64,000 bases of DNA from an uncultured Planctomycetia bacterium (GCA_964527555.1 CAZGOG010000004.1:10593-74592), one strand, 5' to 3'. Counted from the stretch's first letter, positions 2,506 through 49,389 are shown. The notes: a model not told the origin generated them from the sequence alone. Program-made: numbers and translations.

Positions 2506-2691
2506 ATGGGAAAAGTATTGAGTTTACTGATCGGGGCGATCGTAGCGGTTGTGGGTGTCATACTTCTTATCGCATGGTGGTATGAATTCCTGTTTATGCT
2601 TAGGGGGGCTCTGCCCGTACTTCTCATACTGGGCGGCGGCATCGCCGTTGCGGCAGGTCTTAGTGAGCTTAAGGATGTCTTAAAAAAATAA
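2506..2691 (+). CDS. small two-TM membrane protein (hypothetical)
   Basis: A ggagg SD lies 6 nt upstream of the ATG at 2506 (an internal Met of track ORF 2473..2691). MGKVLSLLIGAIVAVVGVILLIAWW... gives two hydrophobic helices. Confidence 0.45.
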   Translation: MGKVLSLLIGAIVAVVGVILLIAWWYEFLFMLRGALPVLLILGGGIAVAAGLSELKDVLKK

Positions 2692-18957: not shown

Positions 18958-20589
18958 ATGCAGCTAAAACTTGAAAGACTTAAGAATTTTACCCCCAGAA
19001 AGGGGCCGCTTCTTTTAATCATCATGGACGGTGTGGGGATGGGTAAGGAGGATGAGACCAACGGCGTGTACGTTGCCAAGACGCCGTGCCTGGATAAACT
19101 CTTTAAGAGTAAACTTTTCACTACACTCCAGGCTCACGGTACCGCGGTCGGCCTTCCCTCGGATGATGATATGGGGAACAGTGAAGTCGGACACAACGCT
19201 TTAGGTGCCGGAAGAGTGTTCGCGCAAGGAGCGAAACGGGTAAATGTGGCGATAAGAGACGGATCTATCTTTAAAAGCGATGTCTGGAAGAAACTCGTTT
19301 CAAGAGTCAAGGAAAAGGGAAGCACCTTTCACTTGATAGGACTTTTATCGGACGGCAACGTCCACTCTAATATCAAGCAGCTCTTCGACATGGTGAGGCG
19401 CCTTGCGGAAGAAGGAGTGAAGCGCGTGCGAATTCATGCGCTTTTAGACGGACGCGACGTGCCTGAGAAGTCCGCCCTCACTTATATAGACATGACGGAA
19501 GAAGTGCTTGATAAAGTGCGCAAAGATAAAGGTTATGATTACAGGATCGCTTCCGGCGGGGGACGCATGGTCACGACCATGGACAGGTATGAGGCTGACT
19601 GGTCAGTTGTAAAGCGGGGCTGGGATGCCCATGTCCTCGGCAAGGCGAGACAGTTTCCTTCCGCTGGCGCAGCCGTTCAGACATATTATGACGAGGATCC
19701 CGGTATGACGGATCAGTATATGGACTCTTTCGTTGTAGCCGAGGGTGGCGAACCCGTAGGCCGCATATTAGACGGCGATTCTGTTGTCTTTTTTAATTTT
19801 AGAGGCGACCGGGCTATTGAGATATCCCGGGCTTTTGAGGAGAAAGATTTTAAATTCTTTGACCGCGAAAGGTATCCCGATATTCTTTATGCGGGGATGC
19901 TGCAATATGACGAGGATACGCACATACCTAAGTATTATCTTGTTGAGCCGCCTGAGATTGATAAAACAGTGAGTGAATACTTATGCACCGCCGGAGTAAG
20001 GATGTTCGCTATCAGCGAGACGCAGAAGTTCGGGCATGTGACGTATTTCTGGAATGGGAACAAGTCCGGGTACGTTTGCAAGGAGCTTGAAGAATATTAC
20101 GAAATACCGTCGGATAAAGTGCAGTTCGACAAGGCCCCGAAGATGAAAGCGCCTGAGATAACGGAGAAGACCACGGGACTCTTAAAAAGCGGGAAGTTCC
20201 GGTTCGGCAGGCTGAATTTCGCAAACGGGGATATGGTGGGGCATACTGCTGTAGTGCCGGCTATTATAAAGGCTATGGAGACGGTGGACTCCTGCGTCGA
20301 GAAACTTCTTGATGTAGTAAAAGCGCTTGATGGGATAGCAATAGTTACCGCTGATCACGGCAATTCAGAGGAGATGTTCACCTATAAAGAAGGCAAGAAA
20401 GTCGTTCCCAAGACGGCTCACACATTGAATCCGGTACCTTTTATCATATATGACCCCGGGTATGCGGGAGAATACAGTATGGCCGATATTCCCGAAAAAG
20501 GGCTTTCGAATGTGGCTGGGACTATCCTGAATCTTTTGGGGTACGAGAACGTCAAGGACTATGATCCACCCCTTATAACGTTTAATTAA
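18958..20589 (+). CDS. gpmI: 2,3-bisphosphoglycerate-independent phosphoglycerate mutase
   Basis: Carries MGNSEVGHNALGAGRV, a C-terminal ADHGN and is 543 aa. Confidence 0.9.
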   Translation: MQLKLERLKNFTPRKGPLLLIIMDGVGMGKEDETNGVYVAKTPCLDKLFKSKLFTTLQAHGTAVGLPSDDDMGNSEVGHNALGAGRVFAQGAKRVNVAIRDGSIFKSDVWKKLVSRVKEKGSTFHLIGLLSDGNVHSNIKQLFDMVRRLAEEGVKRVRIHALLDGRDVPEKSALTYIDMTEEVLDKVRKDKGYDYRIASGGGRMVTTMDRYEADWSVVKRGWDAHVLGKARQFPSAGAAVQTYYDEDPGMTDQYMDSFVVAEGGEPVGRILDGDSVVFFNFRGDRAIEISRAFEEKDFKFFDRERYPDILYAGMLQYDEDTHIPKYYLVEPPEIDKTVSEYLCTAGVRMFAISETQKFGHVTYFWNGNKSGYVCKELEEYYEIPSDKVQFDKAPKMKAPEITEKTTGLLKSGKFRFGRLNFANGDMVGHTAVVPAIIKAMETVDSCVEKLLDVVKALDGIAIVTADHGNSEEMFTYKEGKKVVPKTAHTLNPVPFIIYDPGYAGEYSMADIPEKGLSNVAGTILNLLGYENVKDYDPPLITFN

Positions 20590-21334: not shown

Positions 21335-24300
21335 ATGAGGATTCAAAAAATATACAAGCTATTTTTAGGGATTTCTATAATAAGTCTGTTCGTATTATCT
21401 TTAATGATGCCTGAAGCTGCGGCAGTTGAGACCTACGACGTGATAAGATTTATTGCTCCGGTAGATGGGGATACATGGACTTATACGGGCGACGCGGAAA
21501 TGACTGTGACCGTGGATGGCACAAAGAATATATCGGGAGTGCCGGTGACATGTTACAGTTATAACGGCGGCCAGGCGGGAGGAGAAGAGGACGGCTCGGA
21601 GGAATATCAGATTATTGACCTAGAGGGTATAAACAGTTATGGTGTCGGGGCCCGGGATGATAACGGAGACTGGCTGGAGATGATTTTTGACGCGCCGCTT
21701 TCAATAGCGCCGAGATATGTAGAGTTAGGAGAGACTTATTACGGCAGCACGACTTATACGATATTTACGTATAAAATCCAGATAACTTCCAGTTTTACGG
21801 TTGATGAAGTGGAGGATGTCACTCTTCCCTCCGGAGTTGCCTACAAAGACGCATTAAAAGTTACAATGACACTTCATATGGAGAACTCTCTTCTTGGAAT
21901 AAATGAGACTTCAGGATACGAAAGCTGGAATGTAAGCGGTCTGGGGCCGGTTAAAGTCGTAAATACTATACTTCCGGCGGAACCCGAAGAGTCATACCTT
22001 GAAAGTGCTACAGTGCATCACGATTCCGGATATAAGAAGGCGGAGGTGTTTTCCGCACCTGACGGGGAAGGGTATTTTTATTATCAGTATCGTGATGAGG
22101 ATTATAATGGCCAGGGTTTCGGCAGAGTAAGCAGGAAACAGAGACCGGATACGAGCTATACAACATTCGAGGGCTATTATGAAAGAGCCGGTTCTAACCT
22201 TGACGGGTACCTTGAGAAAAACGGCGGGAAGATAGCTGATGAAGACAGCATCCTTATGCAGGGTTCTCATGCGGTTAAGGTAACCCCTAAACTTAACTCT
22301 TCAGACGTAAGATATGAAATACCGAATTATGCCGATTATGCGGGAGAGACTGTGACTTTTTCATGCTGGGTGCGTTCCTCGGGAGAAAGAGCGGCATGTA
22401 TTGAAATAAGGGACGGTTCGACTATCACCAGATCCGAGAGGCATTCCGGTAGCGGCGGATGGGAGCTTCTTACAATCACGCATACGGTAGCTAATGACCC
22501 GGCATATTTAAGGCTTAGATTTATTCCGGATAAAAGAGACGGGGATGATATCGCTTATTTTGACAATGCGATGTTCGGCAAGCCTTCTCTTCCGGGTAAG
22601 AACCTTCTTTTTAACAACGATTTTGAGTATTGGCATACGGCAGATGCGGACCAGGCGAAATATGTCAAAGAATATAATGAAAACGGTCTTATCGTAAAGT
22701 CCAGTGAGTATTATTCAGACGGTACGCTGTTTCGCCAGACGCTTTTTGATGGTTATTATGACGGTTCCCCTTCGGGGCTCGACGGCTGGGAAGTTGCCAA
22801 CGGGGGCAGCTTGGATGATGAAACTGCCACCGTGAGATCCGAGTCTCATTCCGCAGAAGTGGCAGCGGACCTGGTATCTTCAGACTTAAGATACGAAGTT
22901 TTGCACTACACGGATTATGCAGGCGCAGAAATCACTTTTTCGTGCTGGGTGTATTCCGAGGCGGCAAATTCAGCTCTTATCGAAGTAAGAGACGGCTCAA
23001 GCGTTACAAGATCCGCGTATCATTCGGGTTCCGGCGCCTGGGAGCTTCTCACAGTCACTCATACCGTCTCAGGATCTCCCGATTATCTAAGGTTTAGACT
23101 CATCCCTGATAAAAACGACGGGAATGATCCCGCCTGTTTTGATGATGCGGCATTCGAAAGAAGCGCCGATCCTGGAAACGACCTCTTTTTAAACAGCGGT
23201 TTTGAACACTGGTATGCTCCGGGTGATGATCAAGCCAGATACGTTACCGAGCGTGGGGCGGGCGGCGCTTTTATCAGTAGATGCGAATATTATTCCGACG
23301 GCACGCTTCATAAGCAAACATGCGACGAGGGTGAAGCTGTTTACTCCTGGTATGCGCCCAGCGGCAGGATGCACACTAAAGAGCTGCTTCTTGAGAACGG
23401 TGACCCCGCGGGGACGATATACGAGTATAGCGATGAAGACTGGAACTGCAGTAATTACGGCAGATTGATCAAAAAGACTGGGCCCAGCGGGACATATACG
23501 GTATTTGAAAATTATTTTGATTGCACCCGTTTTGGACTTGATGGATGGGAGATTGGAAACTTTGCTTCTTTCGCGGATGAGACTTCTACGGTGAGAGGAG
23601 GTTCGCATTCTACTAAAGTCAATGCTACGCTCACTTGTTCAGATATGAGATATGAAGGGGCAAACTATATGGATTATGCAGGTGAGGAAATCACTTTTTC
23701 GTGCTGGGTGTATTCCGAGGCGGCAAATTCAGCTCTTATCGAAGTAAGAGACGGCTCAAGCGTTACAAGATCCGCGTATCATTCGGGTTCCGGCGCCTGG
23801 GAGCTTCTCACAGTCACTCATACCGTCTCAGGATCTCCCGATTATCTAAGGTTTAGACTCATCCCTGATAAAAACGATGGGAATGATTCCGCCTATTTTG
23901 ATGATGCGACTTTTGAGCGAAGCGCCGATCCCGGGAATAACCTCCTTTTCAACAGCGGCTTTGAGCATTGGCGCGCTCCGGCGACCGACCAGGCGAGATA
24001 CGTAAAAGAGTATGCAGCGGACGATACTTTGCTTGAAACGTACGAATACTATTCTGACGGTACGCTGTATGAGTATTTGAATTTTGGGCCCAGTTCGCTG
24101 GTTTTAGAGGAGGGATTACAGTTTAATGAGGTAGCTGATCCCCCCTTACCGGAAAGCGTGGAGTATTTCTATGGGAGGATAGACGAGCTTAAAGCTGTTT
24201 CGGATGGACGCGGTGTCACAATTGCAATACTTGATACGGGGTTAGATACAGGCCGCCTTGATATTGATGTCATCGGCGGATTTGATTTTGCAGGGGAAAA

Positions 24301-25033
24301 CTGCTTTGACGGATTTTCCGATAGCGATTATACCGACTTTATAGGGCACGGCACTTTTACAGCCAGTGTCATTAAAGGTGAAGATGCGAGGGGAGTTGCC
24401 CCGGAGGCCGATATTCTTTCGGTTAAGGTGTTTGATAACCAGGGTGGGACGACTTCAGGCATTGTCGCCCGGGCGATCCGTTACGCGGCGGATATGGGCG
24501 CAAAAATCATAGCGATGCCGTTCAGTCTACTTCCGATAAACGGCCAGGTTGAAAGTGCTATTGACTATGCTACCGGCAAAGGCGCTATATTAATAGCTTC
24601 AGCAGGCAACGAGGGAAGTGAAGTAGAGGATACAAGCCTTGCGGCAAATGGTAAAGTTATCACGGTAGGCGCAGCTGATAATAACGGAAAAATGTCGGCG
24701 TGGAGCAATTACGGAAGTGAACTGGACCTTCTGGCGCCCTGGGATGTTGTGACCCTGGAAGAGGGAGGGGCGGGGACTTCTTTCTCGGCGGCCTTTGTAG
24801 CCGGTCTTACGGCGCTCATGCTTTCTGAGAATCCGGATATGACTGAGGAAGACGTGATTGAAGAACTCAAGGCTCTTACATCTGGCTTTGATATGGGAGG
24901 CGCAGAAGAAATCAAAGGCGCCGCTTATAATGACGTCATCTCCATGCAGGAAGCAGAAAGCAAAAACCGCACTGACTTTACCGGGTATTCGCCGGAGATG
25001 GATATTTATGTCGCGCCCGGCGCCGAGCATTAA
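21335..25033 (+). CDS. secreted modular subtilisin-like serine protease (peptidase S8) with three ~250-aa N-terminal repeat modules (YD-repeat-like motif + CBM4/9-like beta-sandwich)
   Basis: Signal peptide with AAAVE. Each repeat carries ...SHS..V......SDLRYE..NY.DYAGE.ITFSCWV.S.....ALIEVRDGSSVTRSAYHSGSGAWELLTVTHTV...PDYLRFRLIPDKNDG. Each also carries EYYSDGTL and YEYSDEDWN..NYGRL motifs. The C-terminal S8 triad is D(TIAILDTG), H(HGTFTAS), S(GTSFSAAFVAG). Confidence 0.85.
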   Translation: MRIQKIYKLFLGISIISLFVLSLMMPEAAAVETYDVIRFIAPVDGDTWTYTGDAEMTVTVDGTKNISGVPVTCYSYNGGQAGGEEDGSEEYQIIDLEGINSYGVGARDDNGDWLEMIFDAPLSIAPRYVELGETYYGSTTYTIFTYKIQITSSFTVDEVEDVTLPSGVAYKDALKVTMTLHMENSLLGINETSGYESWNVSGLGPVKVVNTILPAEPEESYLESATVHHDSGYKKAEVFSAPDGEGYFYYQYRDEDYNGQGFGRVSRKQRPDTSYTTFEGYYERAGSNLDGYLEKNGGKIADEDSILMQGSHAVKVTPKLNSSDVRYEIPNYADYAGETVTFSCWVRSSGERAACIEIRDGSTITRSERHSGSGGWELLTITHTVANDPAYLRLRFIPDKRDGDDIAYFDNAMFGKPSLPGKNLLFNNDFEYWHTADADQAKYVKEYNENGLIVKSSEYYSDGTLFRQTLFDGYYDGSPSGLDGWEVANGGSLDDETATVRSESHSAEVAADLVSSDLRYEVLHYTDYAGAEITFSCWVYSEAANSALIEVRDGSSVTRSAYHSGSGAWELLTVTHTVSGSPDYLRFRLIPDKNDGNDPACFDDAAFERSADPGNDLFLNSGFEHWYAPGDDQARYVTERGAGGAFISRCEYYSDGTLHKQTCDEGEAVYSWYAPSGRMHTKELLLENGDPAGTIYEYSDEDWNCSNYGRLIKKTGPSGTYTVFENYFDCTRFGLDGWEIGNFASFADETSTVRGGSHSTKVNATLTCSDMRYEGANYMDYAGEEITFSCWVYSEAANSALIEVRDGSSVTRSAYHSGSGAWELLTVTHTVSGSPDYLRFRLIPDKNDGNDSAYFDDATFERSADPGNNLLFNSGFEHWRAPATDQARYVKEYAADDTLLETYEYYSDGTLYEYLNFGPSSLVLEEGLQFNEVADPPLPESVEYFYGRIDELKAVSDGRGVTIAILDTGLDTGRLDIDVIGGFDFAGENCFDGFSDSDYTDFIGHGTFTASVIKGEDARGVAPEADILSVKVFDNQGGTTSGIVARAIRYAADMGAKIIAMPFSLLPINGQVESAIDYATGKGAILIASAGNEGSEVEDTSLAANGKVITVGAADNNGKMSAWSNYGSELDLLAPWDVVTLEEGGAGTSFSAAFVAGLTALMLSENPDMTEEDVIEELKALTSGFDMGGAEEIKGAAYNDVISMQEAESKNRTDFTGYSPEMDIYVAPGAEH
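22928..23118 (+). repeat. 191-bp perfect intragenic direct repeat, copy A (copy B at 23687-23877, period 759 bp)
   Basis: The DNA is identical between the second and third protease repeat modules. The flanks are about 75-85% identical. Confidence 0.8.
23687..23877 (+). repeat. 191-bp perfect intragenic direct repeat, copy B
   Basis: Identical to 22928-23118. Confidence 0.8.
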
Positions 25034-25138: not shown

Positions 25139-25214
25139 GGGGCTGTAGCTCAGCTGGGAGAGCGCGTGCATGGCATGCATGAGGTCAGGGGTTCGATCCC
25201 CCTCAGCTCCACCA
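25139..25214 (+). tRNA. tRNA-Ala (anticodon GGC) with G3:U70 identity pair and encoded CCA
   Basis: The acceptor GGGGCTG pairs with CAGCTCC, giving a G3:U70 pair. The anticodon loop ATGGCAT gives GGC. The T-arm is AGGGG-TTCGATC-CCCCT. Confidence 0.9.
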
Positions 25215-25335: not shown

Positions 25336-25614
25336 ATGTGGTATGTATATATACTAAAATGTGCAGACAGCACGCTTTACACAGGCGTTAATATCGATAT
25401 TTCCCGACGAGTAAAGCGGCATAACGCGAGAATAGGCGGCACTTATACCCGAACTCGTGTGCCCGTTGCTTTGGCTTACTCTGAAGAATGTCCCAGTTAT
25501 TCGGCAGCTCTTAAACGTGAAGCTCAGATCAAACGTTGGACAAAAAAGAAGAAGCTTGCGTTAATAGCTGGCGATGTCTCTTATCTGCACGAATTGAGCA
25601 AATCCTGCGATTAA
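25336..25614 (+). CDS. GIY-YIG nuclease family protein (YhbQ/UPF0213-like)
   Basis: WYVYILKCADSTLYTGVNIDISRRVKRHN is a classic GIY-YIG N-terminal motif. The protein is 92 aa. Confidence 0.7.
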   Translation: MWYVYILKCADSTLYTGVNIDISRRVKRHNARIGGTYTRTRVPVALAYSEECPSYSAALKREAQIKRWTKKKKLALIAGDVSYLHELSKSCD

Positions 25615-25622
25615 TTTCAAGT

Positions 25623-26273
25623 CTAAGGCAGAAACTCTTCCTCAAGTGCGGAAAGCGCTTCTTGCAGGAAATCCGTCAAAAGCTTCTCCTTTTTATCCAG
25701 ACTCTCTCCGCCCGGTTTTGCAGAAAGCTGAAAAGTGAACGCGGAGTTTCTCCTTTTCACGATAGAGTCAAGTACGTTTATTATCCTGAACTCTAAAAGG
25801 TCAGCTACATATCTTCGGTTTATCCTGTAACTGTAAAACATAAGTATTTTACTGCCGTTTTTTTGCGCAAGTATTTTTTTGAGCGGAACACGAGGGCTTT
25901 TTTCATCGTTTAGGATTATCATTTCATCCCCCAGGCTTTTAAACGACCAGCCGGATCCGACCCAGCATAGCTGAGGAGCGTGGGGAGTTTTGTCTTTTTT
26001 TGTGTATTCAAAATAAGCGAGATACAACTCGACTTTTTCGCCCTCCTTGTTTTTATACTCGCGGATCAGTATATCATCCGCTCCGAGATAAGTCGCCAGG
26101 TAATCTGAGCTGGTTTGTTCTTTGCCCTGCCACTCGCCGAGCTCGAAAGGAAAATATAAAAATGCTTTTCTAAGAGGAACAGGCTTACCCTCCGGAATAA
26201 AATTAATGTACAAAATAGAGGCAATCAGGATCAGCCATGATGCGAGTATGATTATAGTTTTTGAGAGTTTCAT
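25623..26273 (-). CDS. epsI: exosortase-associated EpsI-family protein
   Basis: 216 aa with an N-terminal anchor and a His-x-Pro...Cys region (HAPQLCW). It is translationally coupled (ATGA overlap) to the upstream exosortase gene. Confidence 0.65.
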   Translation of the reverse strand: MKLSKTIIILASWLILIASILYINFIPEGKPVPLRKAFLYFPFELGEWQGKEQTSSDYLATYLGADDILIREYKNKEGEKVELYLAYFEYTKKDKTPHAPQLCWVGSGWSFKSLGDEMIILNDEKSPRVPLKKILAQKNGSKILMFYSYRINRRYVADLLEFRIINVLDSIVKRRNSAFTFQLSAKPGGESLDKKEKLLTDFLQEALSALEEEFLP

Positions 26274-27082
26274 TAAGTCTTCCTCGATAAAAGGTCGTTT
26301 ATCGTAAAAAGTATTAAAAAGCCTATTATAAGAACCACTATGCCGGTCGTGTCATGGATGGAGGGGAGAATTTCCTGAAGGTTACGCATGTAAGCGATAT
26401 ACGCCGTTGAGACCAGTCTTACCGTATTCATGAGGACCGCTAGGATTATACTCGATATAAAAAGAAGCACTCTATTCTTAATATTTTTCTGAAATATATA
26501 TCCCAGGGCTAATGATATCGCCATGAACACTATAAGACTTCTTAAGCCGCTGCAGGGGGTTGCAACTACCAGTTTGCAGGAAGGGAGGTTTATTATGTTC
26601 CCTTCGCGCATAGCGCTGATACCGAAAAGTTTTATGAAGAAAAAAGCCAGGCGTGTACTGAACAGCCTCAGGTGAAACGTGATCGTTGTGTACACAAGCT
26701 GAGGCAGGGGTATCATAAAAACAAGATACGATATGGAAAAGGCGGTTTTTTTTGCCATTTCCCTGCCTGCCTGGGCGTAGACAAGGCCGAATAACACTAT
26801 CAACATGGAAAAGCATTGCAGGAAGAACTGGTATCCCATCCTTGCTGAGATGTACAGGATCACGCCGGAGAGAATAAACAAGACGCCTGAAGCCGAAGGA
26901 GAAATCCGTGTGTTTTTCAAGCTTTCCCTGTTCCTCCATAGGAAATAGATCGAAAGAATGGGGATAAAGAACCCGTGAGAATAATCCTCAACTGTCATCC
27001 ATTCTGTAACAAGCTCGGGGAATAGAGGCAGATACAACAGGGTAAAGAGGACTATATTTGTGGCAAGCTGGACATAACCCAT
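26273..27082 (-). CDS. xrt: exosortase (PEP-CTERM protein-sorting transpeptidase, Xrt family)
   Basis: A polytopic membrane protein with the N-terminal EDYSHGFFIP motif, an active-site-like Cys in ATPCSGLRSL, and a conserved N..R (LMNTVRL). Confidence 0.8.
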   Translation of the reverse strand: MGYVQLATNIVLFTLLYLPLFPELVTEWMTVEDYSHGFFIPILSIYFLWRNRESLKNTRISPSASGVLFILSGVILYISARMGYQFFLQCFSMLIVLFGLVYAQAGREMAKKTAFSISYLVFMIPLPQLVYTTITFHLRLFSTRLAFFFIKLFGISAMREGNIINLPSCKLVVATPCSGLRSLIVFMAISLALGYIFQKNIKNRVLLFISSIILAVLMNTVRLVSTAYIAYMRNLQEILPSIHDTTGIVVLIIGFLILFTINDLLSRKT

Positions 27083-27202
27083 TTGGTGTTAGTATATACT
27101 TAAGTGCGGGCAAAGGCAAATTCTCCGGTTTTGTGACGCAAACATGGTTTCTGGGTCAGGAAATTTTTGATTTTTAATATTTGAAAGAGTATACTCCTTA
27201 TA

Positions 27203-28129
27203 ATGACGCATAAGCTAATAATATTAGTTTTATTTCTATCACCCCTTTTTACTGTCTCTTTAGGTGCAGACGAAGATACGGATCTTAAGGAATATATCGA
27301 GGACAAACTGGTAATAGCCAGATCCTATTACCAGCAGGGTTTTGCCGCTGGCCGGGATCCGGTATATTTTGACCGCGCAATAGAGGAATATACGAATATA
27401 CTGAAAACAGATCCCTGGAACAAAGAGGCAATAGTCGGCATGGCGGACATATATACCTCGAGAAAGAATTATGACGAGGCTGAAAGATTATACAGGCAAT
27501 CGATCAAATTAGACCCCTGGAACGTGGATTATCATCTAAAGCTGGGATTTCACTATATCGCCAGAGATTTAAGAGAAGAGGCGCTCGAAGAGGCGAACTG
27601 GGTGATCGAGTATGACCCGGAAAACGTAAGAGCACGCCTCTTAAGAGGTATTGTATATGAAAAAACGAGAGATCCGGCGGACGCGATAGACGAGTATCTC
27701 TATGCGATCAGGCATTTCGAGGCCGAAGGCAAAATTGCCTTTGAGATAGACGCGCGTTTAAGACTCGGCGCTCTGTACCTAAAAGAAAAGCTGATATTTG
27801 ATGGAGTAGAGCAGTATGAAGAAGTGGTTAAGATCGAACCAAGGTTTATAAGAGGGTATCTGGAGCTGGCGAATGTTTATTATCGCCTGGGCCGTATAGA
27901 TAAAGCGATTTCCACGCTTAAATTGCTGCTCAGGCATGGGGAGAGAGTTCCACAAGCGCATGTGATGCTCGCGCTTATATATTTCTATAGCGGCGATTAT
28001 GATGCCTCTTTTGCTTATTTTAAGAAGGCGGAGGCTTTTGGGGTCAGCTTTGGGGGCGAGCTTCTGGAGACGTTTAATAAGGTTAAAAGGGCCAAGGAAG
28101 AAAGCGTTAGAGCCGGGGAGCAAGAATAA
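27203..28129 (+). CDS. secreted TPR-repeat protein
   Basis: A signal peptide followed by multiple 34-aa TPR-like repeats (W-LG-Y-A-Y-A-P patterns). Confidence 0.65.
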   Translation: MTHKLIILVLFLSPLFTVSLGADEDTDLKEYIEDKLVIARSYYQQGFAAGRDPVYFDRAIEEYTNILKTDPWNKEAIVGMADIYTSRKNYDEAERLYRQSIKLDPWNVDYHLKLGFHYIARDLREEALEEANWVIEYDPENVRARLLRGIVYEKTRDPADAIDEYLYAIRHFEAEGKIAFEIDARLRLGALYLKEKLIFDGVEQYEEVVKIEPRFIRGYLELANVYYRLGRIDKAISTLKLLLRHGERVPQAHVMLALIYFYSGDYDASFAYFKKAEAFGVSFGGELLETFNKVKRAKEESVRAGEQE

Positions 28130-28134
28130 AGCCG

Positions 28135-29964
28135 ATGGATAAAATGTCTAAAAAAGGAATCCTATCAATAATCGCGGTTCTAGCCGTAGTCAGTATACTA
28201 TTTTTGTTCATAAGACTCTTCTTCTGGCCCCAGAGCAAAAAACCCAATATTCTTCTTATTACAACCCAGTCGTTAAGACCCAGCCACTTAAGCTGTTACG
28301 GTTACAGGCGTTTTAAGACCGGAGCTATTGATAATCTGGCAGGCGAGGGGCTCGTATTTGAGAATTCTTACTGCGACGTACCCGTCCCTGTTTACGGTTA
28401 TGCCTCAATCCTGAGCGGCAAGACCGGTTCCTCAGCGATATCAAGGCAAGGAGACAGTATCTATCTTAATATTTCAAGTAAGTTCTTAAGTGAGTACCTC
28501 CAGGAAAGCGGCTATGAAACGGTAGCCCTTACCGCTAACCCTGAACTCTCGAAAGCCATGGGTTTTGGAAAAGGATTTAATACGTTCCAGAATATAGGGG
28601 CGTCTCTGCCGAGGGCCGGTTTTCCTTTTGCCAGCAAAAAAGTCACTGAGGAAACCCTGGAAAATCTAAAAAAGTTTAGAAAAGGGAAAAAACCCGTTTT
28701 CCTGTGGGCAGATTACGCTATACCGCGGTTCCCTTACATCGTGCCCAGTTATTTTCTGGAGGCGGAGAATGATTTTGCCTATGATAGACAAGTAGTCTTC
28801 CTGGATAGTGAAATATCAAAGCTGATGGCAGGTGTTAAAAAACTCGGCCTGGACAATAATACCATAGTTATATTCACCGCGACGAACGGGGAAGCTCTTG
28901 GCGAACACGAAGAGCCGACCCACGGTGTGTTCTTGTATGATGCGACCGTAAAAACCCCGCTTATTATAAGATTTCCAAAGGATTTTTTTAAAGGAAATAG
29001 AATAAAAAAAGCTGTTTCTAATATCGACATCACTCCTACTGTTTTAGATATTCTCGGGATAGATAGTACGGAAGGCGGGTTTGACGGGATAAGCCTTCTT
29101 GACAGGCTTGAAGAGAGAAGAAGAGGTTCGGAAGACGTCTATCTTGAGTCCTTGGTCGGTTATTATGAATTCGGATGGAGCCCGCTTGTCGGGATAGTCT
29201 CAGACGGCTATAAATATATCCAGGCGCCTGAGCCTGAGCTTTATGATCTGGCAAAAGACCCTCATGAACTTAAAAATATAGCATCTTTTGATGAAGAAAA
29301 AGCCGAAGAGTTAAAAAATAAACTGTTTAAATACATCACCGAGAAAAGACCCCAGCTTCTTAGTATGGTGGACAGGGGAGAAGACCCCAAAGAGAGGGCA
29401 GGGGTGCTTAAGCCTTATCTACTGGCCATGTATTTCGGCAATGTCAATGTAGAGTGGCTCATAAGTATTTACAGGAATCTCCTGGCCATGGATCCGGATA
29501 ATAAGACGTTCAAGTATGTTCTGGCAAAACTTTTCATGCGCGTTAATAAACCACACCTGGCGGAGTATTATCTGGAAGAGATCACTGCCGCAAGCCCCGA
29601 TTCCAACCAGGCGTGGGAACTTCTGGGGATGGCGTATGCCCAGCAGAAGGAGGGCGACAATGCCGTTGAGTGTTACGAAAAGGCGATTGCCATTATTTAT
29701 GATATGCCGGTCTCTTTGAATAATCTTGCGTGGGCATACGCGCAAAAAGGCGTAAAGCTGGAGGAAGCTCTTAAATACGCACAGCGGGCGAACGAGCTTT
29801 TGCCCAATCAGCCCAAGATGATGGACACGCTTGCAGAAGTTTATTTTAAAATGGGGGATAAAGAGGAAGCCCTTGAAATAATTAGAAAAGCCGCGTCACT
29901 CGATCCACAGTCAGAATATCTTCAGAAAAGGTTAGGAGAAATAGAGGGGTTTATTTCTTCATAA
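28135..29964 (+). CDS. membrane-anchored sulfatase-like (alkaline phosphatase superfamily) enzyme fused to C-terminal TPR domain
   Basis: An N-terminal TM, then a sulfatase N-domain pattern (LLITTQSLRPSHLSCYGY, ...TNGEALGEHEEPTHG), then C-terminal TPR repeats. No canonical C/S-x-P-x-R formylglycine motif is present. Confidence 0.6.
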   Translation: MDKMSKKGILSIIAVLAVVSILFLFIRLFFWPQSKKPNILLITTQSLRPSHLSCYGYRRFKTGAIDNLAGEGLVFENSYCDVPVPVYGYASILSGKTGSSAISRQGDSIYLNISSKFLSEYLQESGYETVALTANPELSKAMGFGKGFNTFQNIGASLPRAGFPFASKKVTEETLENLKKFRKGKKPVFLWADYAIPRFPYIVPSYFLEAENDFAYDRQVVFLDSEISKLMAGVKKLGLDNNTIVIFTATNGEALGEHEEPTHGVFLYDATVKTPLIIRFPKDFFKGNRIKKAVSNIDITPTVLDILGIDSTEGGFDGISLLDRLEERRRGSEDVYLESLVGYYEFGWSPLVGIVSDGYKYIQAPEPELYDLAKDPHELKNIASFDEEKAEELKNKLFKYITEKRPQLLSMVDRGEDPKERAGVLKPYLLAMYFGNVNVEWLISIYRNLLAMDPDNKTFKYVLAKLFMRVNKPHLAEYYLEEITAASPDSNQAWELLGMAYAQQKEGDNAVECYEKAIAIIYDMPVSLNNLAWAYAQKGVKLEEALKYAQRANELLPNQPKMMDTLAEVYFKMGDKEEALEIIRKAASLDPQSEYLQKRLGEIEGFISS

Positions 29965-43693: not shown

Positions 43694-44425
43694 ATGCTTA
43701 GGACTCTCAATGAAAAAAAAAATAGAGGCACCAGATTTGATACCCAAAGGTCTAAAGATTTTTTCAATAAACTAGGGAAAAATTATGTCAAGTCTGCCAA
43801 AGCTGAATACGACCGCATATACAGCCGTACCGCCAGTATCATAGAGCCATATCTAAAAGGAAAAGTCTTGAATCTGGGGAGCGGCGGGATAGATCTTCCA
43901 GATTCAAGGGGTATGACCCTGCAAGTTTCACTAGATACCTCAGAGGAACTGATTAAATGTCACAAGCTTGGAGAAGGGCGCGAAGCTATTTGCGCGGAGG
44001 CAAGAGATCTCCCTTTCGAAGGGGAATCGTTTGATGTGATTGTGGCTCATTTTTCCCTGCATCATTTTGCTCAAGAATCGGTCTTTCTCACGTTCGAATA
44101 CGTTCGAGAGGTTTTTCGAAGTATAAAAAGAATTATAAAAAAAAGGGGCAAGGTAATAATAGCGGAAAACACCGTCAATGATGCTGTCGCTTTTTTTGAG
44201 AAACTGGGCTACCCTGCGCTAAGGTCAATATTAAGCAGATCAAAACGACCTCCTGTTTATTTATTTTCCGTGAGGACGCTGAACGCCTTTTTAAAAGAGG
44301 CGGGATTCAGGCTTTTAAATTTCACAAGTTTCAAAGAGGAGGCAAAACCGCTTCTACTGCCTTTTTCTATTCCAAGAAGCGTGAACCCTATGTCCATATC
44401 TGTATTTATCGGGGAAAAACAATGA
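43694..44425 (+). CDS. class I SAM-dependent methyltransferase (1 of 4 in tandem)
   Basis: Motif I reads VLNLGSGG. Confidence 0.65.
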   Translation: MLRTLNEKKNRGTRFDTQRSKDFFNKLGKNYVKSAKAEYDRIYSRTASIIEPYLKGKVLNLGSGGIDLPDSRGMTLQVSLDTSEELIKCHKLGEGREAICAEARDLPFEGESFDVIVAHFSLHHFAQESVFLTFEYVREVFRSIKRIIKKRGKVIIAENTVNDAVAFFEKLGYPALRSILSRSKRPPVYLFSVRTLNAFLKEAGFRLLNFTSFKEEAKPLLLPFSIPRSVNPMSISVFIGEKQ

Positions 44426-45249
44426 ATACTGAAAGTACTGGGCTTAAGAGGCTGGACTCCGAAGAGAGATTTCATGACAGCTATGCGGATTCGCTAAAAG
44501 CGGAAGAGCTTTTGGTCGATGAAAGCTTTGAAGCCCTTACTGCGCAGGAGAATAAGTTTGTACTGGAAGAGTTTGGTTCACTTTGCGGTAAGTCATTACT
44601 TGATCTTGGCTGCGGCGCGGGAGAATCCGCCGTTTATTTCGCAAAGAAAGGCGCCAAAGTCACGGCGGTAGATATTTCAAGCGGGATGCTGAGGCGAGCG
44701 GAAGAGCTGGCCGGCATTCACGGCGTAAGTATCGAAACTTTGCAACTGGACGCCGGGGACATTATGTCGTTGGGGAGTCGATTTGATTACATCTACGGAA
44801 ACGGCGTTTTGCATCATATGGATTTCGAGAACATGATAGCTGACGTTAAAAAAGTGCTATCTCCCGGCGGTAAAGCCGTCTTTATAGAGCCGTTTGCCCA
44901 CAATTTTATAATTAACATATACCGCAGGCTAGCGAAAGATGTGCGCAGTCCGCAGGAAGAGCCGCTTAAGTTTAGGGATATAAAATTCTTCAGGAGACAT
45001 TTTAAAGAGGTAAAGCATAAAGAATTCTGGTTTTTTTCTTTGTTGGTTTTTGTCGTTTTGTTTCTTAAGGGGATACATCCCTCAAGGGAGCGTTATTGGA
45101 AGTATGTTATCAGACATGCTGAGGAATATAAACAAATGTTTCTTATTTTAAGTTCTTTGGACAGAGTGATATTAAAAGTGTTCCCCTTTCTTGGGAGATT
45201 TTGTTGGAATACGGTAGTTGTTCTGGAAGAGCCGTACCATGAGAAGTGA
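44422..45249 (+). CDS. class I SAM-dependent methyltransferase (2 of 4)
   Basis: Motif I LLDLGCGAGE and motif post-I VTAVDIS. Confidence 0.7.
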   Translation: MNTESTGLKRLDSEERFHDSYADSLKAEELLVDESFEALTAQENKFVLEEFGSLCGKSLLDLGCGAGESAVYFAKKGAKVTAVDISSGMLRRAEELAGIHGVSIETLQLDAGDIMSLGSRFDYIYGNGVLHHMDFENMIADVKKVLSPGGKAVFIEPFAHNFIINIYRRLAKDVRSPQEEPLKFRDIKFFRRHFKEVKHKEFWFFSLLVFVVLFLKGIHPSRERYWKYVIRHAEEYKQMFLILSSLDRVILKVFPFLGRFCWNTVVVLEEPYHEK

Positions 45250-45964
45250 TACATATAAATGGCTTGATGATATTCAAGACAACCATTGGTGGCTTAATGC
45301 CAGGAAAGAGATCGTCACGAATCTATTTGAGAAATATTCGGATTCTGATTTGTTGAATATTCTGGAGATAGGTTTTGGGACCGGTGGAGTTTTGGAAGCG
45401 GTATCAAGGTATGGTCAAGCGTGGGGTATGGATAGTGCTGAGGCTATAAAGTATGCCCAAAAGCGGTATCCCGACACTCGTCTTTTTGAGGGCAGATTAC
45501 CCGATGAAGTACCTTTTCCGGAAAACTCGGTCGATAGAGTCATAATGCTTGATGTGCTTGAGCATATTGAGGATGACTCTTTATCTCTGAAAAAAATAGC
45601 GGGTTTACTTCGGCCTGGAGGAATGCTTTTTTTGACGGTTCCAGCATTTAGTTTTTTATGGGGCAAGCATGATATGGATGCAATGCATAGAAGAAGGTAC
45701 AGCCGTAGAGAAATCATCCAGAAACTAAAAGGGGCAGGGTTTGATATAGTAAAATGCAGTTATTTTAATATGTTTTTATTCTTTCCGATAGCTCTTGCAA
45801 AGATGAGTAACAAAATAAGGACTAGTTCTGTGGAAAAAAAAGAATTTCCGCAAGTGATAGAGAATTTATTTTATAACATTTTTAGAAGCGAAAAGATTTT
45901 TCTTGAGAGATTCAATTTGCCCTTTGGCATATCAATAATCTGTATCGTTCAAAAAAATAAATGA
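45218..45964 (+). CDS. class I SAM-dependent methyltransferase (3 of 4)
   Basis: Motif I ILEIGFGTGG. Confidence 0.7.
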   Translation: MFWKSRTMRSDTYKWLDDIQDNHWWLNARKEIVTNLFEKYSDSDLLNILEIGFGTGGVLEAVSRYGQAWGMDSAEAIKYAQKRYPDTRLFEGRLPDEVPFPENSVDRVIMLDVLEHIEDDSLSLKKIAGLLRPGGMLFLTVPAFSFLWGKHDMDAMHRRRYSRREIIQKLKGAGFDIVKCSYFNMFLFFPIALAKMSNKIRTSSVEKKEFPQVIENLFYNIFRSEKIFLERFNLPFGISIICIVQKNK

Positions 45965-46602
45965 AAATGAATAATATAGAGAAAAAAATCTTATCTTTAT
46001 GTAAAAGGGGTAAAATCTTCAGATTTTTTACTAGACTTAAATTTTCTCTGATACCTTTTAATAAGATAAGCGAGCTATTGCCGGATGAAGGTCAGATTTA
46101 TGAACTTGGTTCAGGGTACGGGTTTGAGGCAGCTTATCTGGCTTTAGATAAACCGGGAAGAGTTGTTACCGGGATTGATATAGATAAAAAACGCGTTGAA
46201 ACAGCTAAAAATATCACAGAAAAAGTGTCTAATCTAAGATTCTCATGTGCGGATATAAAAGAGGTAGATCTTTCCGAGTCTAACGGTATATTGATGGTTA
46301 GTTTCCTGCATCATTTGCAATACCCGGATCAGGTGGCTCTAATAAAGAAGTGCTACGATTCTTTAACAGCGAATGGGACATTACTTATTTTAGATCCGGT
46401 TAATCATCCTCCGTTTAAAAATTTCATGAACTGGTTAAGTGACTGGCTATTGTATCCGTTCTCTGATAAGGCTTTTTTACGTTCGAAAGATGATCTGGTG
46501 GATTTGGTAGAGTCAGCCGGTTTTGACGCGCGGGGTGAGATAGAGAAAAGTAGCGGCTGGGGACTATTTTCTTATGCGCTTGTTGTGGGGAAGAAGCTAT
46601 GA
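45961..46602 (+). CDS. class I SAM-dependent methyltransferase (4 of 4)
   Basis: Motif I IYELGSGYGF. Confidence 0.65.
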   Translation: MKMNNIEKKILSLCKRGKIFRFFTRLKFSLIPFNKISELLPDEGQIYELGSGYGFEAAYLALDKPGRVVTGIDIDKKRVETAKNITEKVSNLRFSCADIKEVDLSESNGILMVSFLHHLQYPDQVALIKKCYDSLTANGTLLILDPVNHPPFKNFMNWLSDWLLYPFSDKAFLRSKDDLVDLVESAGFDARGEIEKSSGWGLFSYALVVGKKL

Positions 46603-48236
46603 AAAAGGCAAATTTAAGAGGAGCAACTATCGCATTAATGATATTCATTCTTGTAATAAGTCTGGCCTATTACGGCGCTTATTACAACAAGCTGGCGTAT
46701 CCCGTTAAGGATTACGGCTGTTTGCTTTCAGGCGGGGCGAGGGTTTCTTCCGGACAGATGCCTTATATCAATTTTTTCTCTTATTATCCGCCGTTACGTT
46801 ATCTAGTGTTGGGGGGATGGTTTAAAATGTTGGGAGTTTCGGTGGAATCCTCTCAATTACTTTTAGCTTTCTTGTTAACTCTTTCTAATCTTTTGCTTTT
46901 TTTGGTTGCTTGCAGATTTCTGCCCAGGATCTTAGCTTTGATCCCGGTGATCATTCATCTAATAATGCCGGGACCATGGTGGAAAGTCTGGTTTATGCTT
47001 TCCGTGTTAACGGGTCTTTTGTTTATTTTGAGGTATATTGAAAGACCCGATAAACTGCGCGCTTCTCTAGCGGGTTTTGCATGCGGTATTATGATATGGA
47101 TAAGGCAGGATATAGGATGTTATCTTCTGCTTACACTGGCGGTTATTTTCGTAATAACATATCTAAAGAAAACTCCGCTAAGGAATTTTATTTACTGCGT
47201 TTCAGGTGGGATAGCAAGCGGCATGACATTTATCTTTTATTACATGCTAAGAGGCGGCAATATAGTTGATTTTTTCAGGGATACCCTATGGACCGTTTAT
47301 ATCACCAGGCAGGCTGCCGGTGATGCTGCGCGTTTCTGGGTCTATCCCAATACTTTGTTCGGCATTGCAGGAATTCTGTTTATGTTCATTTTCGCTTTTA
47401 TCATATATAAGAGAAGGGAAGATATGACACTTTTTACCCGTTTGTGTGCTTTATTGATCATGACGGGTTTTTGCTTTTTCCATATGCAGATAGGCAGTTT
47501 CAAGTATTATAGGTTCCCGCAGGATCAGGCGTTAATGTATATAATTATGGTGTTTATCGGATTAGAGACATACCGGCTTATGGCGGGTAAAACAAATAAG
47601 ATGCTTGTGAGAGTAAGCTCTTCCTTGGTTCTTGTATTTATAATTTCCGGCATTTCCTTTTATTCTTATTATACTTTCTTTGCCCTAAGTAAAAGCGGTT
47701 ACTTTGCTTACACGGGTATTTTACCGTACTTTAAGAAAAACTGGCAAAAGACAAATATAGAACGCATGGGTAATGTCATGATTAAACGGGAAAAAGCCAT
47801 GGCGTTTAAGAATGCGATTAAGGCGATCGACAGCGCCGCGGAAGTCAATGAAGATGTTTTCTATGGCAGTAATGCTTTTTTGGCTTTTCTTTCCGCCCAT
47901 CCCACACCGGCAAGGGAGGATGTAGTGTACTTTCTTTTTGCCGATAAAAGCGTTATGCGGGATTTTCTGGAAAGGGCAAAAGAAAAAGCTCCAAAAGTTG
48001 TTGTTTTATCGGCGGTAGATCGCCGGATCGCAAGACGTAATCCCGAAGAAAATATTAGGCCGGTTCTTGATTTTGTTAAGAATAACTATGATTTTTCCGA
48101 GAAAGTTGGCAGATATTACGTTTTTGTTAAGGCTGAAAACCCTGATAGGATTGAGACGGAAAAGCGTCTTAACAGTCTATTCTTTGGAGGCGGGAAGAAA
48201 GAGAAATCAGCCAGGGCGAAGCATGATTATGAATAA
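46599..48236 (+). CDS. polytopic membrane protein with GT-C-like architecture (candidate ArnT/GtrC-type periplasmic glycosyltransferase)
   Basis: About 370 aa containing 10 or more predicted TM helices, then a soluble C-terminal domain of about 170 aa. The assignment is from architecture only. Confidence 0.35.
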   Translation: MKKANLRGATIALMIFILVISLAYYGAYYNKLAYPVKDYGCLLSGGARVSSGQMPYINFFSYYPPLRYLVLGGWFKMLGVSVESSQLLLAFLLTLSNLLLFLVACRFLPRILALIPVIIHLIMPGPWWKVWFMLSVLTGLLFILRYIERPDKLRASLAGFACGIMIWIRQDIGCYLLLTLAVIFVITYLKKTPLRNFIYCVSGGIASGMTFIFYYMLRGGNIVDFFRDTLWTVYITRQAAGDAARFWVYPNTLFGIAGILFMFIFAFIIYKRREDMTLFTRLCALLIMTGFCFFHMQIGSFKYYRFPQDQALMYIIMVFIGLETYRLMAGKTNKMLVRVSSSLVLVFIISGISFYSYYTFFALSKSGYFAYTGILPYFKKNWQKTNIERMGNVMIKREKAMAFKNAIKAIDSAAEVNEDVFYGSNAFLAFLSAHPTPAREDVVYFLFADKSVMRDFLERAKEKAPKVVVLSAVDRRIARRNPEENIRPVLDFVKNNYDFSEKVGRYYVFVKAENPDRIETEKRLNSLFFGGGKKEKSARAKHDYE

Positions 48237-49389
48237 AACTAAATTAATTCTTGTTATAACTCTTAGTATGATCTTTGTGTTTTTATGGGCAAAGAGCACC
48301 AGCTGGGTTCGTCTGGCTAAAGCAGATTTTTATATTAAGGAAGGCCAGACGGATAAGGCCCTCAAGGTTTATGAGAGTATTTTTCGTAAGGAAGAAATAT
48401 TATCCGAAAGCGGGACAGTTCGCACGTTTTTTAAATTAAAACCGCAGAAAGAGTATAATGTCGGTTCTTTTTTGGCTGATTATTATAAAAATAACGGCGA
48501 TCTTGAGAAAGAAATAAAATGCCTGAAAAGACTCGCGCAGTTAAAACCAAATGAGGAAAATAGTTATCTCAGGCTTTATGATATTTATGTAAGTAAAGAT
48601 GATATCAGGGAAGCAACGAAGGTGGTTGCCTGTTATGAAAAGGCCAATAGTCGCATTTTCCCGAGAGAAATGCCCCGCGATTTACTTTGGGAATATAACC
48701 TGGGGAAAAGTTATTTGGATAAAGGCATGCTCGAAAAGGCTGAAAAATCATTCAAGTTTTGTCTTGAGAAAAACAGTAAATTCGCGGATGTATATTATTT
48801 ACTAGGCGCAGTTTACCAGAAAGAAGGGAGGAGGGAGGAGGCAATCGAAGAGTACCGGCAGGCTGTCAGCATCGCTCCGAACCACATGGGCTCATTGGTT
48901 GCTTTAAGCGGATTATATGAAAAGCCGGGTGCAGGTGAAGGCCAGTTTATAGAAAAGAGAATTGAGGAATTAACGCCTCCCGATAAGGCGGATATTAATT
49001 TTTCTGATAAGATTCAGCTTTTGGGGTATGATATCGGAATAGGCGCGGATAAAAGAGCGCTTTTTAAGTTCTGGTTTAAATGTTTGAGTGAAATAGACAG
49101 GGATTATTTGTGTGTGATCTATGTTAAAACAAAGGATCTGGATTTATTGCCGCCAAAACGAAAAAATATAGGATTTTTATGTTTTTCCGATAAAATAGCG
49201 GGAGGTACTTCAAACTGGCAGATAGGTGAAGTATATACGACTGAATTTAAAAGAAGAGTAAAGACAGAAAAATATCAGGTGATATTTTTTCTTAAAAGTT
49301 CCGGCGGTGAAGATTCTTCCCCGATGGTTTTAAGAAACACTGCCACAGGCGGAAGGAACGCGGATCTGGGGGTTATAAGGATTTTTTAA
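48223..49389 (+). CDS. membrane-anchored TPR-repeat protein
   Basis: An N-terminal TM (MIMNKTKLILVITLSMIFVFLW) and several TPR-like repeats. The start is an internal Met of track ORF 48067. Confidence 0.5.
   Translation: MIMNKTKLILVITLSMIFVFLWAKSTSWVRLAKADFYIKEGQTDKALKVYESIFRKEEILSESGTVRTFFKLKPQKEYNVGSFLADYYKNNGDLEKEIKCLKRLAQLKPNEENSYLRLYDIYVSKDDIREATKVVACYEKANSRIFPREMPRDLLWEYNLGKSYLDKGMLEKAEKSFKFCLEKNSKFADVYYLLGAVYQKEGRREEAIEEYRQAVSIAPNHMGSLVALSGLYEKPGAGEGQFIEKRIEELTPPDKADINFSDKIQLLGYDIGIGADKRALFKFWFKCLSEIDRDYLCVIYVKTKDLDLLPPKRKNIGFLCFSDKIAGGTSNWQIGEVYTTEFKRRVKTEKYQVIFFLKSSGGEDSSPMVLRNTATGGRNADLGVIRIF

Follow-up and report, generated by a model that had tools for sequence, protein, structure and literature searches.

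A conserved gene module that joins an XrtA-related exosortase to a predicted pseudo-sulfatase/TPR protein in an uncultured Planctomycetia bacterium

Exosortases are widespread in environmental bacteria, and the fate of PEP-CTERM proteins after cleavage, like the partners that take part in it, is largely deduced from genomics. An exosortase system is expected to have cognate PEP-CTERM (TIGR02595) proteins, usually more than two, encoded in the same genome, and the core made of an exosortase, EpsI, and a TPR protein, linked to exopolysaccharide (EPS) genes, is already textbook matter in comparative genomics. In the EpsH/exosortase proteins, the conserved Cys, Arg, and His residues are the likely catalytic triad, and PEP-CTERM genes are typically dispersed around the genomes (Haft 2006, PMC1569441). 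We analyzed a stretch of 64,000 nucleotides, hereafter the window, from an uncultured Planctomycetia bacterium (GCA_964527555.1, CAZGOG010000004.1:10593-74592). Its positions 25623-29964 carry an exosortase gene followed by epsI and, divergently oriented, the genes of a secreted TPR protein and of a membrane-anchored sulfatase-like/TPR fusion (table 1; all positions are counted along the whole window). The explanation that best accounts for the data, and which we regard as probable, is a working exosortase system of an unnamed XrtA-related subtype in which the TPR protein and the fusion, a predicted pseudo-sulfatase, might, more speculatively, serve as non-catalytic adaptors. The loci of relatives that were compared with this one are designated by L-numbers (L087, L090, up to L179).

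Like the XrtA/PEP-CTERM system with its EpsH-EpsI pair (Haft 2006, PMC1569441), this locus encodes a predicted polytopic exosortase with the Cys/Arg/His residues and a separate EpsI immediately downstream. The two systems further share a TPR accessory protein, an association with an exopolysaccharide locus, and PEP-CTERM cargo, encoded here beside the modules of relatives. However, the clade to which this exosortase belongs scores under the XrtA cutoff, whereas its nearest outgroups in Desulfonema, Nitrospira, and Granulicella pass it. In addition, its TPR proteins, of ~300-550 aa as compared with ~900 aa for the PrsT lipoprotein, fall far below the PrsT cutoff, the clade loci showed no PrsK or PrsR gene, and the module, which includes a pseudo-sulfatase/TPR protein in addition, usually lies outside an EPS locus. 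The best-scoring hidden Markov models (HMMs) for the exosortase and EpsI halves are those of XrtW (NF038142) and of XrtD, the VPLPA-CTERM exosortase (TIGR04152). In contrast to the two genes found here, each of these subtypes consists of one protein of ~490 aa in which exosortase and EpsI are fused and, unlike that of XrtD, the cargo encoded near the relatives has PEP and not VPLPA tails.

The fourth gene product has its own described relatives. It resembles the fusions of a sulfatase-like hydrolase/transferase with TPR known from Acidobacteriota, Gammaproteobacteria, Coatesbacteria, Pirellulales, and others, which also combine an N-terminal transmembrane (TM) helix, PF00884 and PF16347 matches, and C-terminal TPR (26-30% identity over >90% of the length). 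Unlike these active proteins, its clade has lost both the PF01663 match and the xDTLRxD, PxTxPSH, and DHGE site present in the 13 that we sampled. It also shares the two-subdomain fold of the S1 formylglycine carbohydrate sulfatases (7stv, 9fo1, 6ust, and 5fql) but lacks their Cys/Ser-x-Pro-x-Arg motif and metal site, and it is TPR-fused and membrane-anchored. No sulfatase domain was found nearby in the distant exosortase loci sampled. Literature searches returned no description of a sulfatase-like exosortase partner, of this module, or of this clade. What is new is the conserved pseudo-sulfatase accessory, along with its predicted independent recruitment by a second lineage of exosortases.

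The Exosortase-EpsI Pair and Its Clade

A previous reading of the window made from the sequence alone (the sequence-only reading) had proposed an exosortase coupled to EpsI, and the family HMMs recognize both proteins. The exosortase scores 166.4 bits with TIGR02602 (cutoff 105.55), 58.1 with TIGR04178 (cutoff 23), and 207.9 with PF09721 (cutoff 25.7; 2.2e-61); the assignment to a non-exosortase family that would have spoken against the proposal was thus looked for and did not appear. EpsI (DUF3485) belongs to its family with both TIGR02914 (96.8 bits, cutoff 42.8) and PF11984 (118 bits, cutoff 26; 4.6e-34). The motifs quoted in that reading are all present in the exosortase, as EDYSHGFFIP at residues 32-41, PCSGLRS at residues 176-182, and NTVR at residues 219-222. 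Cys177 and Arg222 do not vary among 20-21 aligned homologs, at least 90% of which have His243; across the exosortase clade, 32 columns remain invariant. A simple Kyte-Doolittle scan detects six hydrophobic segments above a strict threshold, and the protein aligns end to end with an eight-TM HMM.

The stop codon of the exosortase gene and the start codon of epsI overlap by one base in the sequence TAATG (ACT TAATG AAA). Judging by this junction, the two genes are translationally coupled and form one transcription unit. On the other strand, 5 nt separate the TPR gene from the fusion gene. The 120-bp spacer between the exosortase and TPR genes, this short gap, and the TAATG overlap together define two divergent two-gene units. 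The spacer contains one sigma-70-like match in each orientation (table 1), identified by a consensus scan alone, which is no proof of function. According to a hydrophobicity scan, each of the four proteins of the module carries a TM or signal segment at its N-terminus; on the basis of topology and the positive-inside rule, the EpsI, TPR, and pseudo-sulfatase domains are predicted to be periplasmic. The four genes were confirmed as open reading frames (ORFs) at the places where the sequence-only reading had put them. It was also right that the exosortase-epsI pair is the sole minus-strand unit besides era, which runs off the start of the window on the minus strand; the other convincing ORFs are all on the plus strand. 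GC skew is positive across the whole window. The window corresponds to about positions 877-64876 of JGI contig Ga0309773_1000204 (144,881 bp), with four mismatches in 20.8 kb, and the exosortase and EpsI proteins are identical in several independent assemblies.

Subfamily HMMs, a check proposed by the sequence-only reading, show the exosortase to be XrtA-like, but none of the named subtypes can be assigned. All scores are below the cutoffs: 207.8 of 425 bits for XrtW (NF038142), 189.1 of 400 for XrtD (TIGR04152), and 171.0 of 208 for XrtA (TIGR03109). XrtW and XrtD being fused-type models, we added the scores of the exosortase and EpsI. The sums (207.8 + 93.9, ~302 bits, for XrtW and 189.1 + 104.9, ~294 bits, for XrtD) are still under 425 and 400, respectively. 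Five clade relatives score 164-172 bits with the XrtA model, likewise under the cutoff of 208. Outgroup exosortases sharing 33-40% identity reach 215 (Desulfonema magnum), 219 (Nitrospira), 210 (Granulicella), and 205 bits (Zixibacteria). As the clade remains under the cutoff while these outgroups are at or near it, the model scores identify the exosortase as a member of a clade that is XrtA-related yet unnamed. This clade lies outside the current NCBIfam exosortase subtype models.

Some 28 database entries share at least 49% identity with the exosortase, and nearly all are metagenomic. Those with a taxon label come from a "Candidatus Omnitrophica/Omnitrophota" metagenome-assembled genome (MAG; 58% identity) and from one Planctomycetia-labeled MAG (49%); the nearest taxon-labeled relative of the fusion protein is encoded by an Omnitrophota MAG (44%). 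Judging by these nearest labeled relatives, the bacterium of the window probably belongs to Omnitrophota. EpsI follows the exosortase in every clade locus of sufficient length. A frameshift in a fused gene of the XrtW/XrtD type was considered as the origin of the split genes and rejected, as every clade member carries two genes, which overlap by 1-4 nt or are separated by a short gap.

The Pseudo-Sulfatase/TPR Fusion and the Conservation of the Module

The fusion protein is composed of a TM helix (residues 8-26), an S1-sulfatase-fold domain (~37-410), and a TPR domain (~440-604). It matches PF00884 (105.6 bits, cutoff 25; 4e-30), PF16347 (69.8 bits, cutoff 29.3; 4e-19), and TPR families. An AlphaFold2 model based on a 26-sequence alignment has a pLDDT of 90 and a pTM of 0.86. 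In a Foldseek search with this model, S1 carbohydrate sulfatases came out on top (7stv, 9fo1, and 6ust; E ~1e-20, target-normalized TM-score 0.65-0.71). The TM helix, sulfatase fold, and TPR announced by the sequence-only reading are therefore all there; a catalytic sulfatase site is not. In the HMMER alignment to iduronate-2-sulfatase 5fql (also to 4upi and 5g2v), the metal-binding DD corresponds to Gln45-Ser46, the formylglycine motif C-A-P-S-R to Pro85-Val-Tyr-Gly-Tyr89, and the Asp-His pair to Thr250-Asn251. Of the features that define type I (S1) sulfatases, the fusion has the fold and neither the C/S-x-P-x-R motif nor the Asp/Asp/Asp/His(Asn) metal site. Similarly, alignment to solved sulfatases shows that their catalytic Lys/His are not kept.

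Thirteen clade proteins were aligned with 13 active relatives of ~30% identity. At eight positions, which are Q45, S46, P85, Y87, G88, Y89, T250, and N251 in the fusion, the active relatives have D, T, T, P, S, H, D, and H. All are invariant (13/13) except for the P (12/13), and their motifs xDTLRxD, PxTxPSH, and DHGE correspond to the Thr-nucleophile site of the alkaline-phosphatase superfamily. By contrast, the site is retained in none of the 13 clade members, in which all eight positions are replaced. The metal-ligand positions vary among the clade orthologs (Q/H/G/N/S/L/R at 45 and T/P/A/V/G at 250). Two aromatic positions are conserved, with Tyr or Phe at 87 and Tyr at 89, each in 12/13 proteins, and GEH (E257/H258) and H263 stay conserved in the fusion. 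Within the clade, the mean pairwise identity is 48.6% for the sulfatase domain (37-410) and 47.6% for the TPR domain, indicating that the sulfatase domain is not decaying. On these alignments it is a conserved pseudoenzyme whose fold is kept under purifying selection. The homology search shows a sharp break: about 18 orthologs of 588-646 aa, 41-100% identical, are followed by hundreds of longer fusions at ~30%. The latter come from many phyla and also match PF01663, a signal lost in the clade of the window.

The TPR protein encoded upstream matches many TPR Pfam families and has a hydrophobic, signal-peptide-like N-terminus (residues 5-23). This signal-peptide region contains no Cys, the residue expected of a lipoprotein such as PrsT. 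With the PrsT model (TIGR02917, cutoff 312), the TPR protein and the fusion score 72.3 and 99.5 bits, respectively; these are partial matches, and neither protein belongs to the family. The orthologs of the TPR protein are 36-41% identical and, when complete, 305-551 aa long; they are encoded adjacently in L090, L091, L092, L095, L173, L176, and L172. The TPR partners in L177 (8424-10004) and L178 (1-1917) carry C-terminal S1/OB-fold repeats similar to rpsA (~1e-40 over residues 347-520). They nevertheless have an N-terminal membrane or signal segment, the domain being odd for a presumably periplasmic protein.

The complete arrangement, fusion and TPR genes divergent from exosortase and epsI, recurs in L091 (exosortase 68% identical), L173 (66%), L176 (63%), L092 (59%), L090 (58%, Omnitrophota MAG JAMWCX01), and L095 (55%). 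In L176, three small genes are inserted between the two divergent units. L090 and L092 share flanking genes, whereas the surroundings of the other contexts are unrelated. The four-gene module is therefore found in seven contexts, whose flanking genes fall into six unrelated sets (the window, L173, L091, L095, L176, and L090/L092). In L177, the TPR and fusion genes immediately follow, in the same orientation, the gene of a 359-aa exosortase-family protein. This protein (TIGR04178 50 bits, cutoff 23) is not similar by BLAST to the exosortase of the window (E = 2.6); the subtype that it matches best is XrtE-like, and beside it EpsI was not called. As read from this gene order, the pair in L177 is a second, independent association with an exosortase. 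The seven contexts with their six unrelated flanks and the link to an unrelated exosortase in L177 support the guess, made from the window alone, that the TPR and sulfatase-TPR genes encode accessory components.

Cargo and the Roles of the Two Partners

Candidate cargo genes lie beside several modules. In L091, two genes just past the fusion gene encode proteins ending in ...GVIPEPATVISFLLGGAGLAAKRFIRRKRR and ...HSPEPATLISALLGLFGFAARRLARKNKVV. In L095, a 545-aa protein ending in ...ATPEPATVVSGLIGLLGLAGRRLIRRKRKI is encoded at the same position beyond the fusion gene, and in L087 (exosortase 49% identical) two PEP-tailed DUF4114 proteins flank the exosortase-EpsI pair. The divergent neighbor of the fusion in L171 is a DUF4114 protein ending in ...GNPEPATILSFFLAGLGLAFRKMRK. 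The TIGR02595 cutoff (16) is passed in L091 (20.2) and by the L171 protein (18.4). A profile search with the DUF4114 neighbors retrieved 129 proteins, most of them with PF13448 and PF07589, and the PEP-CTERM neighbors in L171 and L087 belong to this broad DUF4114 + PF07589 family. Because such genes occur beside the modules of relatives with 49-68% identical exosortases, PEP-CTERM proteins are, by association, the likely cargo of this exosortase clade. Their position abutting the relatives' modules agrees with cargo encoded elsewhere in the genome analyzed here. Near the unrelated exosortase of L177, a 207-aa protein (19002-19625, plus strand) ends in ...LPELPPGAMQMMVLMFGSALTWVKMRMK and is matched by no curated model. 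Its end may be a divergent sorting tail, with PELP in place of PEP.

On the explanation that we favor, Sec-exported proteins with a tail made of a PEP motif, a TM helix, and a basic cluster would be held in the inner membrane by this tail, by analogy with the sortase-like chemistry of Cys, Arg, and His that has been proposed for EpsH and with the relatives whose modules adjoin PEP-CTERM genes. From what is known of the family, the exosortase would cleave at the PEP motif on the outer face of the inner membrane (Haft 2006, PMC1569441). The mature protein would then be released or transferred to the cell surface or to the exopolysaccharide matrix, in concert with EPS production. The presence of clade exosortases inside EPS loci (L087, L093, and L179) speaks for this explanation. 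The cargo of this genome would be encoded beyond the 73 kb examined. More speculatively, the TPR protein and the pseudo-sulfatase/TPR protein might be non-catalytic periplasmic adaptors, whose TPR parts would mediate protein-protein contacts with the cargo or with the exosortase and EpsI. The remodeled pocket with Tyr87 and Tyr89 could bind a ligand; an anionic or sulfated glycan is the most plausible one, and the cargo is another candidate. Glycan binding might couple sorting to a polysaccharide made elsewhere, for example by the putative sulfated-EPS locus 6.6 kb downstream, and the adaptors might stand in for the physical coupling to the EPS machinery that EPS-embedded clade members have. 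The fusion accompanies exosortases encoded outside EPS loci, a suggestive pattern in few cases.

A dead-sulfatase partner hints at a new non-enzymatic helper in the sorting pathway, and the module provides a further clear case, from bacteria, of a pseudoenzyme that selection has kept. Glycan binding by the dead pocket, if it occurs, would strengthen a long-standing idea, namely a mechanistic coupling of PEP-CTERM sorting with exopolysaccharide. A further exosortase subtype alone would not surprise specialists. The four-gene module might well interest them, as it would provide a defined minimal set of candidate exosortase partners and a handle on what exosortases attach their substrates to.

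Several observations weigh against a sorting system with dedicated adaptors. As the sequence-only reading had noted, no PEP-CTERM protein is encoded in the window: a tail regular expression applied to all its ORFs of at least 40 aa in any frame revealed no credible combination of motif, TM segment, and basic tail. We also built a profile from 25 PEP-CTERM tails taken from the relatives' loci and ran an unfiltered search, with held-out tails as control. The best ORF in the window and the 9 kb beyond its start scored 3.1 bits, as compared with 17.7 for the true tail from L095 and 10.8 for that of the second L091 gene. None of the 129 proteins of the DUF4114/PEP-CTERM family search is encoded on the contig of the window, and no PEP-CTERM gene lies within 10 kb in most module contexts (L090, L092, L173, and L176). 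Moreover, the co-occurrence of fusion and exosortase in other genomes, which the sequence-only reading had proposed to check, holds in the six further module contexts and in L177 but breaks down in five loci that have one without the other. L172 (GCA_964352425.1, CAYGRZ010000003.1, 8104-11842) keeps the TPR and fusion genes in synteny with L090 (MiaB-like, TPR, fusion, TPR-SPOR, MiaA, HflX, HrcA, GrpE, DnaK, and DnaJ) and has a 130-bp gap in place of the exosortase-EpsI pair. No remnant of the pair was detected there by tblastn, which indicates either a clean loss or a relocation. L171 has the fusion alone, without an adjacent exosortase. Conversely, three clade exosortases are located inside EPS loci with no fusion within 10 kb: L087 (Bac_transf, WecG, Wzy, sulfotransferase, GT2, and flippase), L093 (rich in glycosyltransferases [GTs], with the TPR gene kept downstream of epsI), and L179 (Wza, Bac_transf, FemAB-like, and Wzy). 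Finally, the module-bearing contigs, mostly metagenomic, may represent one lineage, in which case the synteny could be partly inherited and not selected.

L171 and L093 both originate from JGI sample 3300017989. L171, on a 527-kb contig, has a lone fusion with a PEP-CTERM gene as its neighbor, and L093, on a 57-kb contig, has exosortase, EpsI, and TPR genes but no fusion. They could belong to one genome with the module split over two sites.

The TPR and pseudo-sulfatase/TPR pair might instead be an independent envelope or polysaccharide-assembly unit, located beside the exosortase-EpsI pair by inherited synteny and with no role in sorting. The TPR-fusion pair of L172 and the lone fusion of L171, both without an adjacent exosortase, are what this would predict, as are the EPS-embedded clade exosortases that manage without the fusion. 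Active sulfatase-TPR fusions (~30% identity) are also widespread, none of the distant exosortases sampled has a sulfatase domain in its vicinity, and TPR proteins are generic scaffolds. We nevertheless consider this explanation unlikely, since the module is intact through at least six different genomic neighborhoods and the pair has joined an exosortase of unrelated descent in L177. In addition, even the lone fusion of L171 has a PEP-CTERM protein as its divergent neighbor, and a PEP-CTERM gene abuts the fusion gene in 3/11 contexts as compared with ~3% expected by chance, a rough estimate that was not computed.

A bolder version of the adaptor explanation makes the pseudo-sulfatase/TPR protein a dedicated, non-catalytic receptor that would capture a sulfated or otherwise anionic exopolysaccharide in the periplasm and present it to the exosortase as the transpeptidation acceptor for PEP-CTERM proteins. 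We hold this to be rather improbable. If true, the module would point directly at the long-unknown exosortase acceptor, and its occurrence where the exosortase is not physically in an EPS locus would be explained.

The exosortase-EpsI pair could also be an orphan or decaying system without cargo, or act on proteins other than PEP-CTERM, for example with a divergent tail missed by current models. This would be in line with the absence of cargo from the 73 kb searched and with the clean loss of the pair in the close relative L172, where it appears dispensable; as no named subtype fits, signal specificity is moreover undefined by curated models. Against this stand the catalytic Cys, Arg, and His and the 32 invariant columns kept across the clade, the two intact and translationally coupled ORFs, and the identity of the proteins over several independent assemblies. 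Furthermore, canonical PEP-CTERM neighbors exist in the 49-68% identical relatives, and PEP-CTERM genes are typically scattered in genomes (Haft 2006, PMC1569441). A system of this kind therefore seems improbable, slightly more so than the acceptor-presenting receptor. That the sulfatase-like domain is still an enzyme through non-canonical residues, with another nucleophile or metal-independent chemistry, is very improbable: its fully kept and confidently modeled fold, the purifying selection on it, and the conserved GEH (E257/H258) and H263 would allow it, but the nucleophile and all metal ligands are lost, the metal positions vary freely, unlike those of a relocated active site, and the PF01663 signal of the active relatives has disappeared from the clade.

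The Downstream Polysaccharide Locus and Other Neighboring Genes

Table 1. Coordinates of the module and of other features in the window
Feature	Position	Strand	Size and remarks
Membrane protein	~2506-2691	+	61 aa
Secreted S8 subtilase-domain protein	21335-25033	+	1232 aa
Repeats in the gene of the S8 protein	22300-22599, 22879-23178, 23638-23937		spacing 579 and 759 nt
tRNA-Ala	25139-25214		
GIY-YIG nuclease-domain protein	25336-25614	+	92 aa
EpsI	25623-26273	-	216 aa; N-terminal TM helix and predicted periplasmic domain
Exosortase	26273-27082	-	269 aa; predicted polytopic membrane protein
Divergent intergenic region, exosortase/TPR genes	27083-27202		120 bp
Sigma-70-like match	27119-27091	-	consensus scan
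Sigma-70-like match	27167-27195	+	consensus scan
Secreted TPR protein	27203-28129	+	308 aa; first gene of the divergent two-gene unit
Membrane-anchored pseudo-sulfatase/TPR fusion	28135-29964	+	609 aa
Wzx/Wzy-type polysaccharide locus	36536-63207	+	context, outside the conserved module
Four tandem methyltransferases	43694-46602		in the polysaccharide locus
Multi-pass membrane protein	46599-48236	+	545 aa; in the polysaccharide locus
Third membrane-anchored TPR protein	48220-49389	+	in the polysaccharide locus
Active-type sulfatase-like protein	56294-57592		stand-alone gene

The EPS-like locus that the sequence-only reading located ~10 kb downstream begins at 36.5 kb, which puts it 6.6 kb downstream of the fusion gene and at a distance of ~9.5 kb from the exosortase. 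The genes in between encode LeuRS, a glutaminyl-cyclase-like protein, ComEA, and ComEC. The locus (36.5-63.2 kb) encodes CysD, CysN, a type-I phosphodiesterase-like protein (Phosphodiest), two epimerases/dehydratases, a GT2 protein, four tandem methyltransferases, a Wzx flippase, two sulfotransferases, a Wzy polymerase, and GT1-family transferases. It further includes genes for an oxidoreductase, a UDP-GlcNAc 2-epimerase, a radical-SAM protein, and another GT1. A stand-alone sulfatase-like gene of the active type retains the DH pair and one Asp. An initiating transferase (Bac_transf), Wza, and Wzz were not identified among the genes of the window, not all of which were profile-scanned. From this gene content, the product is probably a sulfated and methylated glycan. 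Because its linkage to the module is absent in all relatives compared, we place the polysaccharide locus outside the conserved module; it is a possible functional partner. The locus also encodes a multi-pass membrane protein with no family assignment and a third membrane-anchored TPR protein.

Other genes of the window deserve mention. Near its start, a small membrane protein has the precomputed Pfam label "MamI" (magnetosome family), which we did not reproduce; it has just a weak holin-like match. The gene of a stand-alone GIY-YIG nuclease-domain protein lies between a tRNA-Ala gene and the stop codon of epsI. We rejected the idea of a strain-variable insertion, as its DNA is identical in all source contigs. 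Further upstream, a large secreted protein combines three internal repeats with a C-terminal S8 subtilase domain. It was rejected as a cargo candidate, since it has no C-terminal TM segment and basic tail and no homolog beside the relatives' modules. At the DNA level its three repeats are 66-92% identical, and they are weakly similar to a phage head spike-fiber domain (NF048003, 4e-11).

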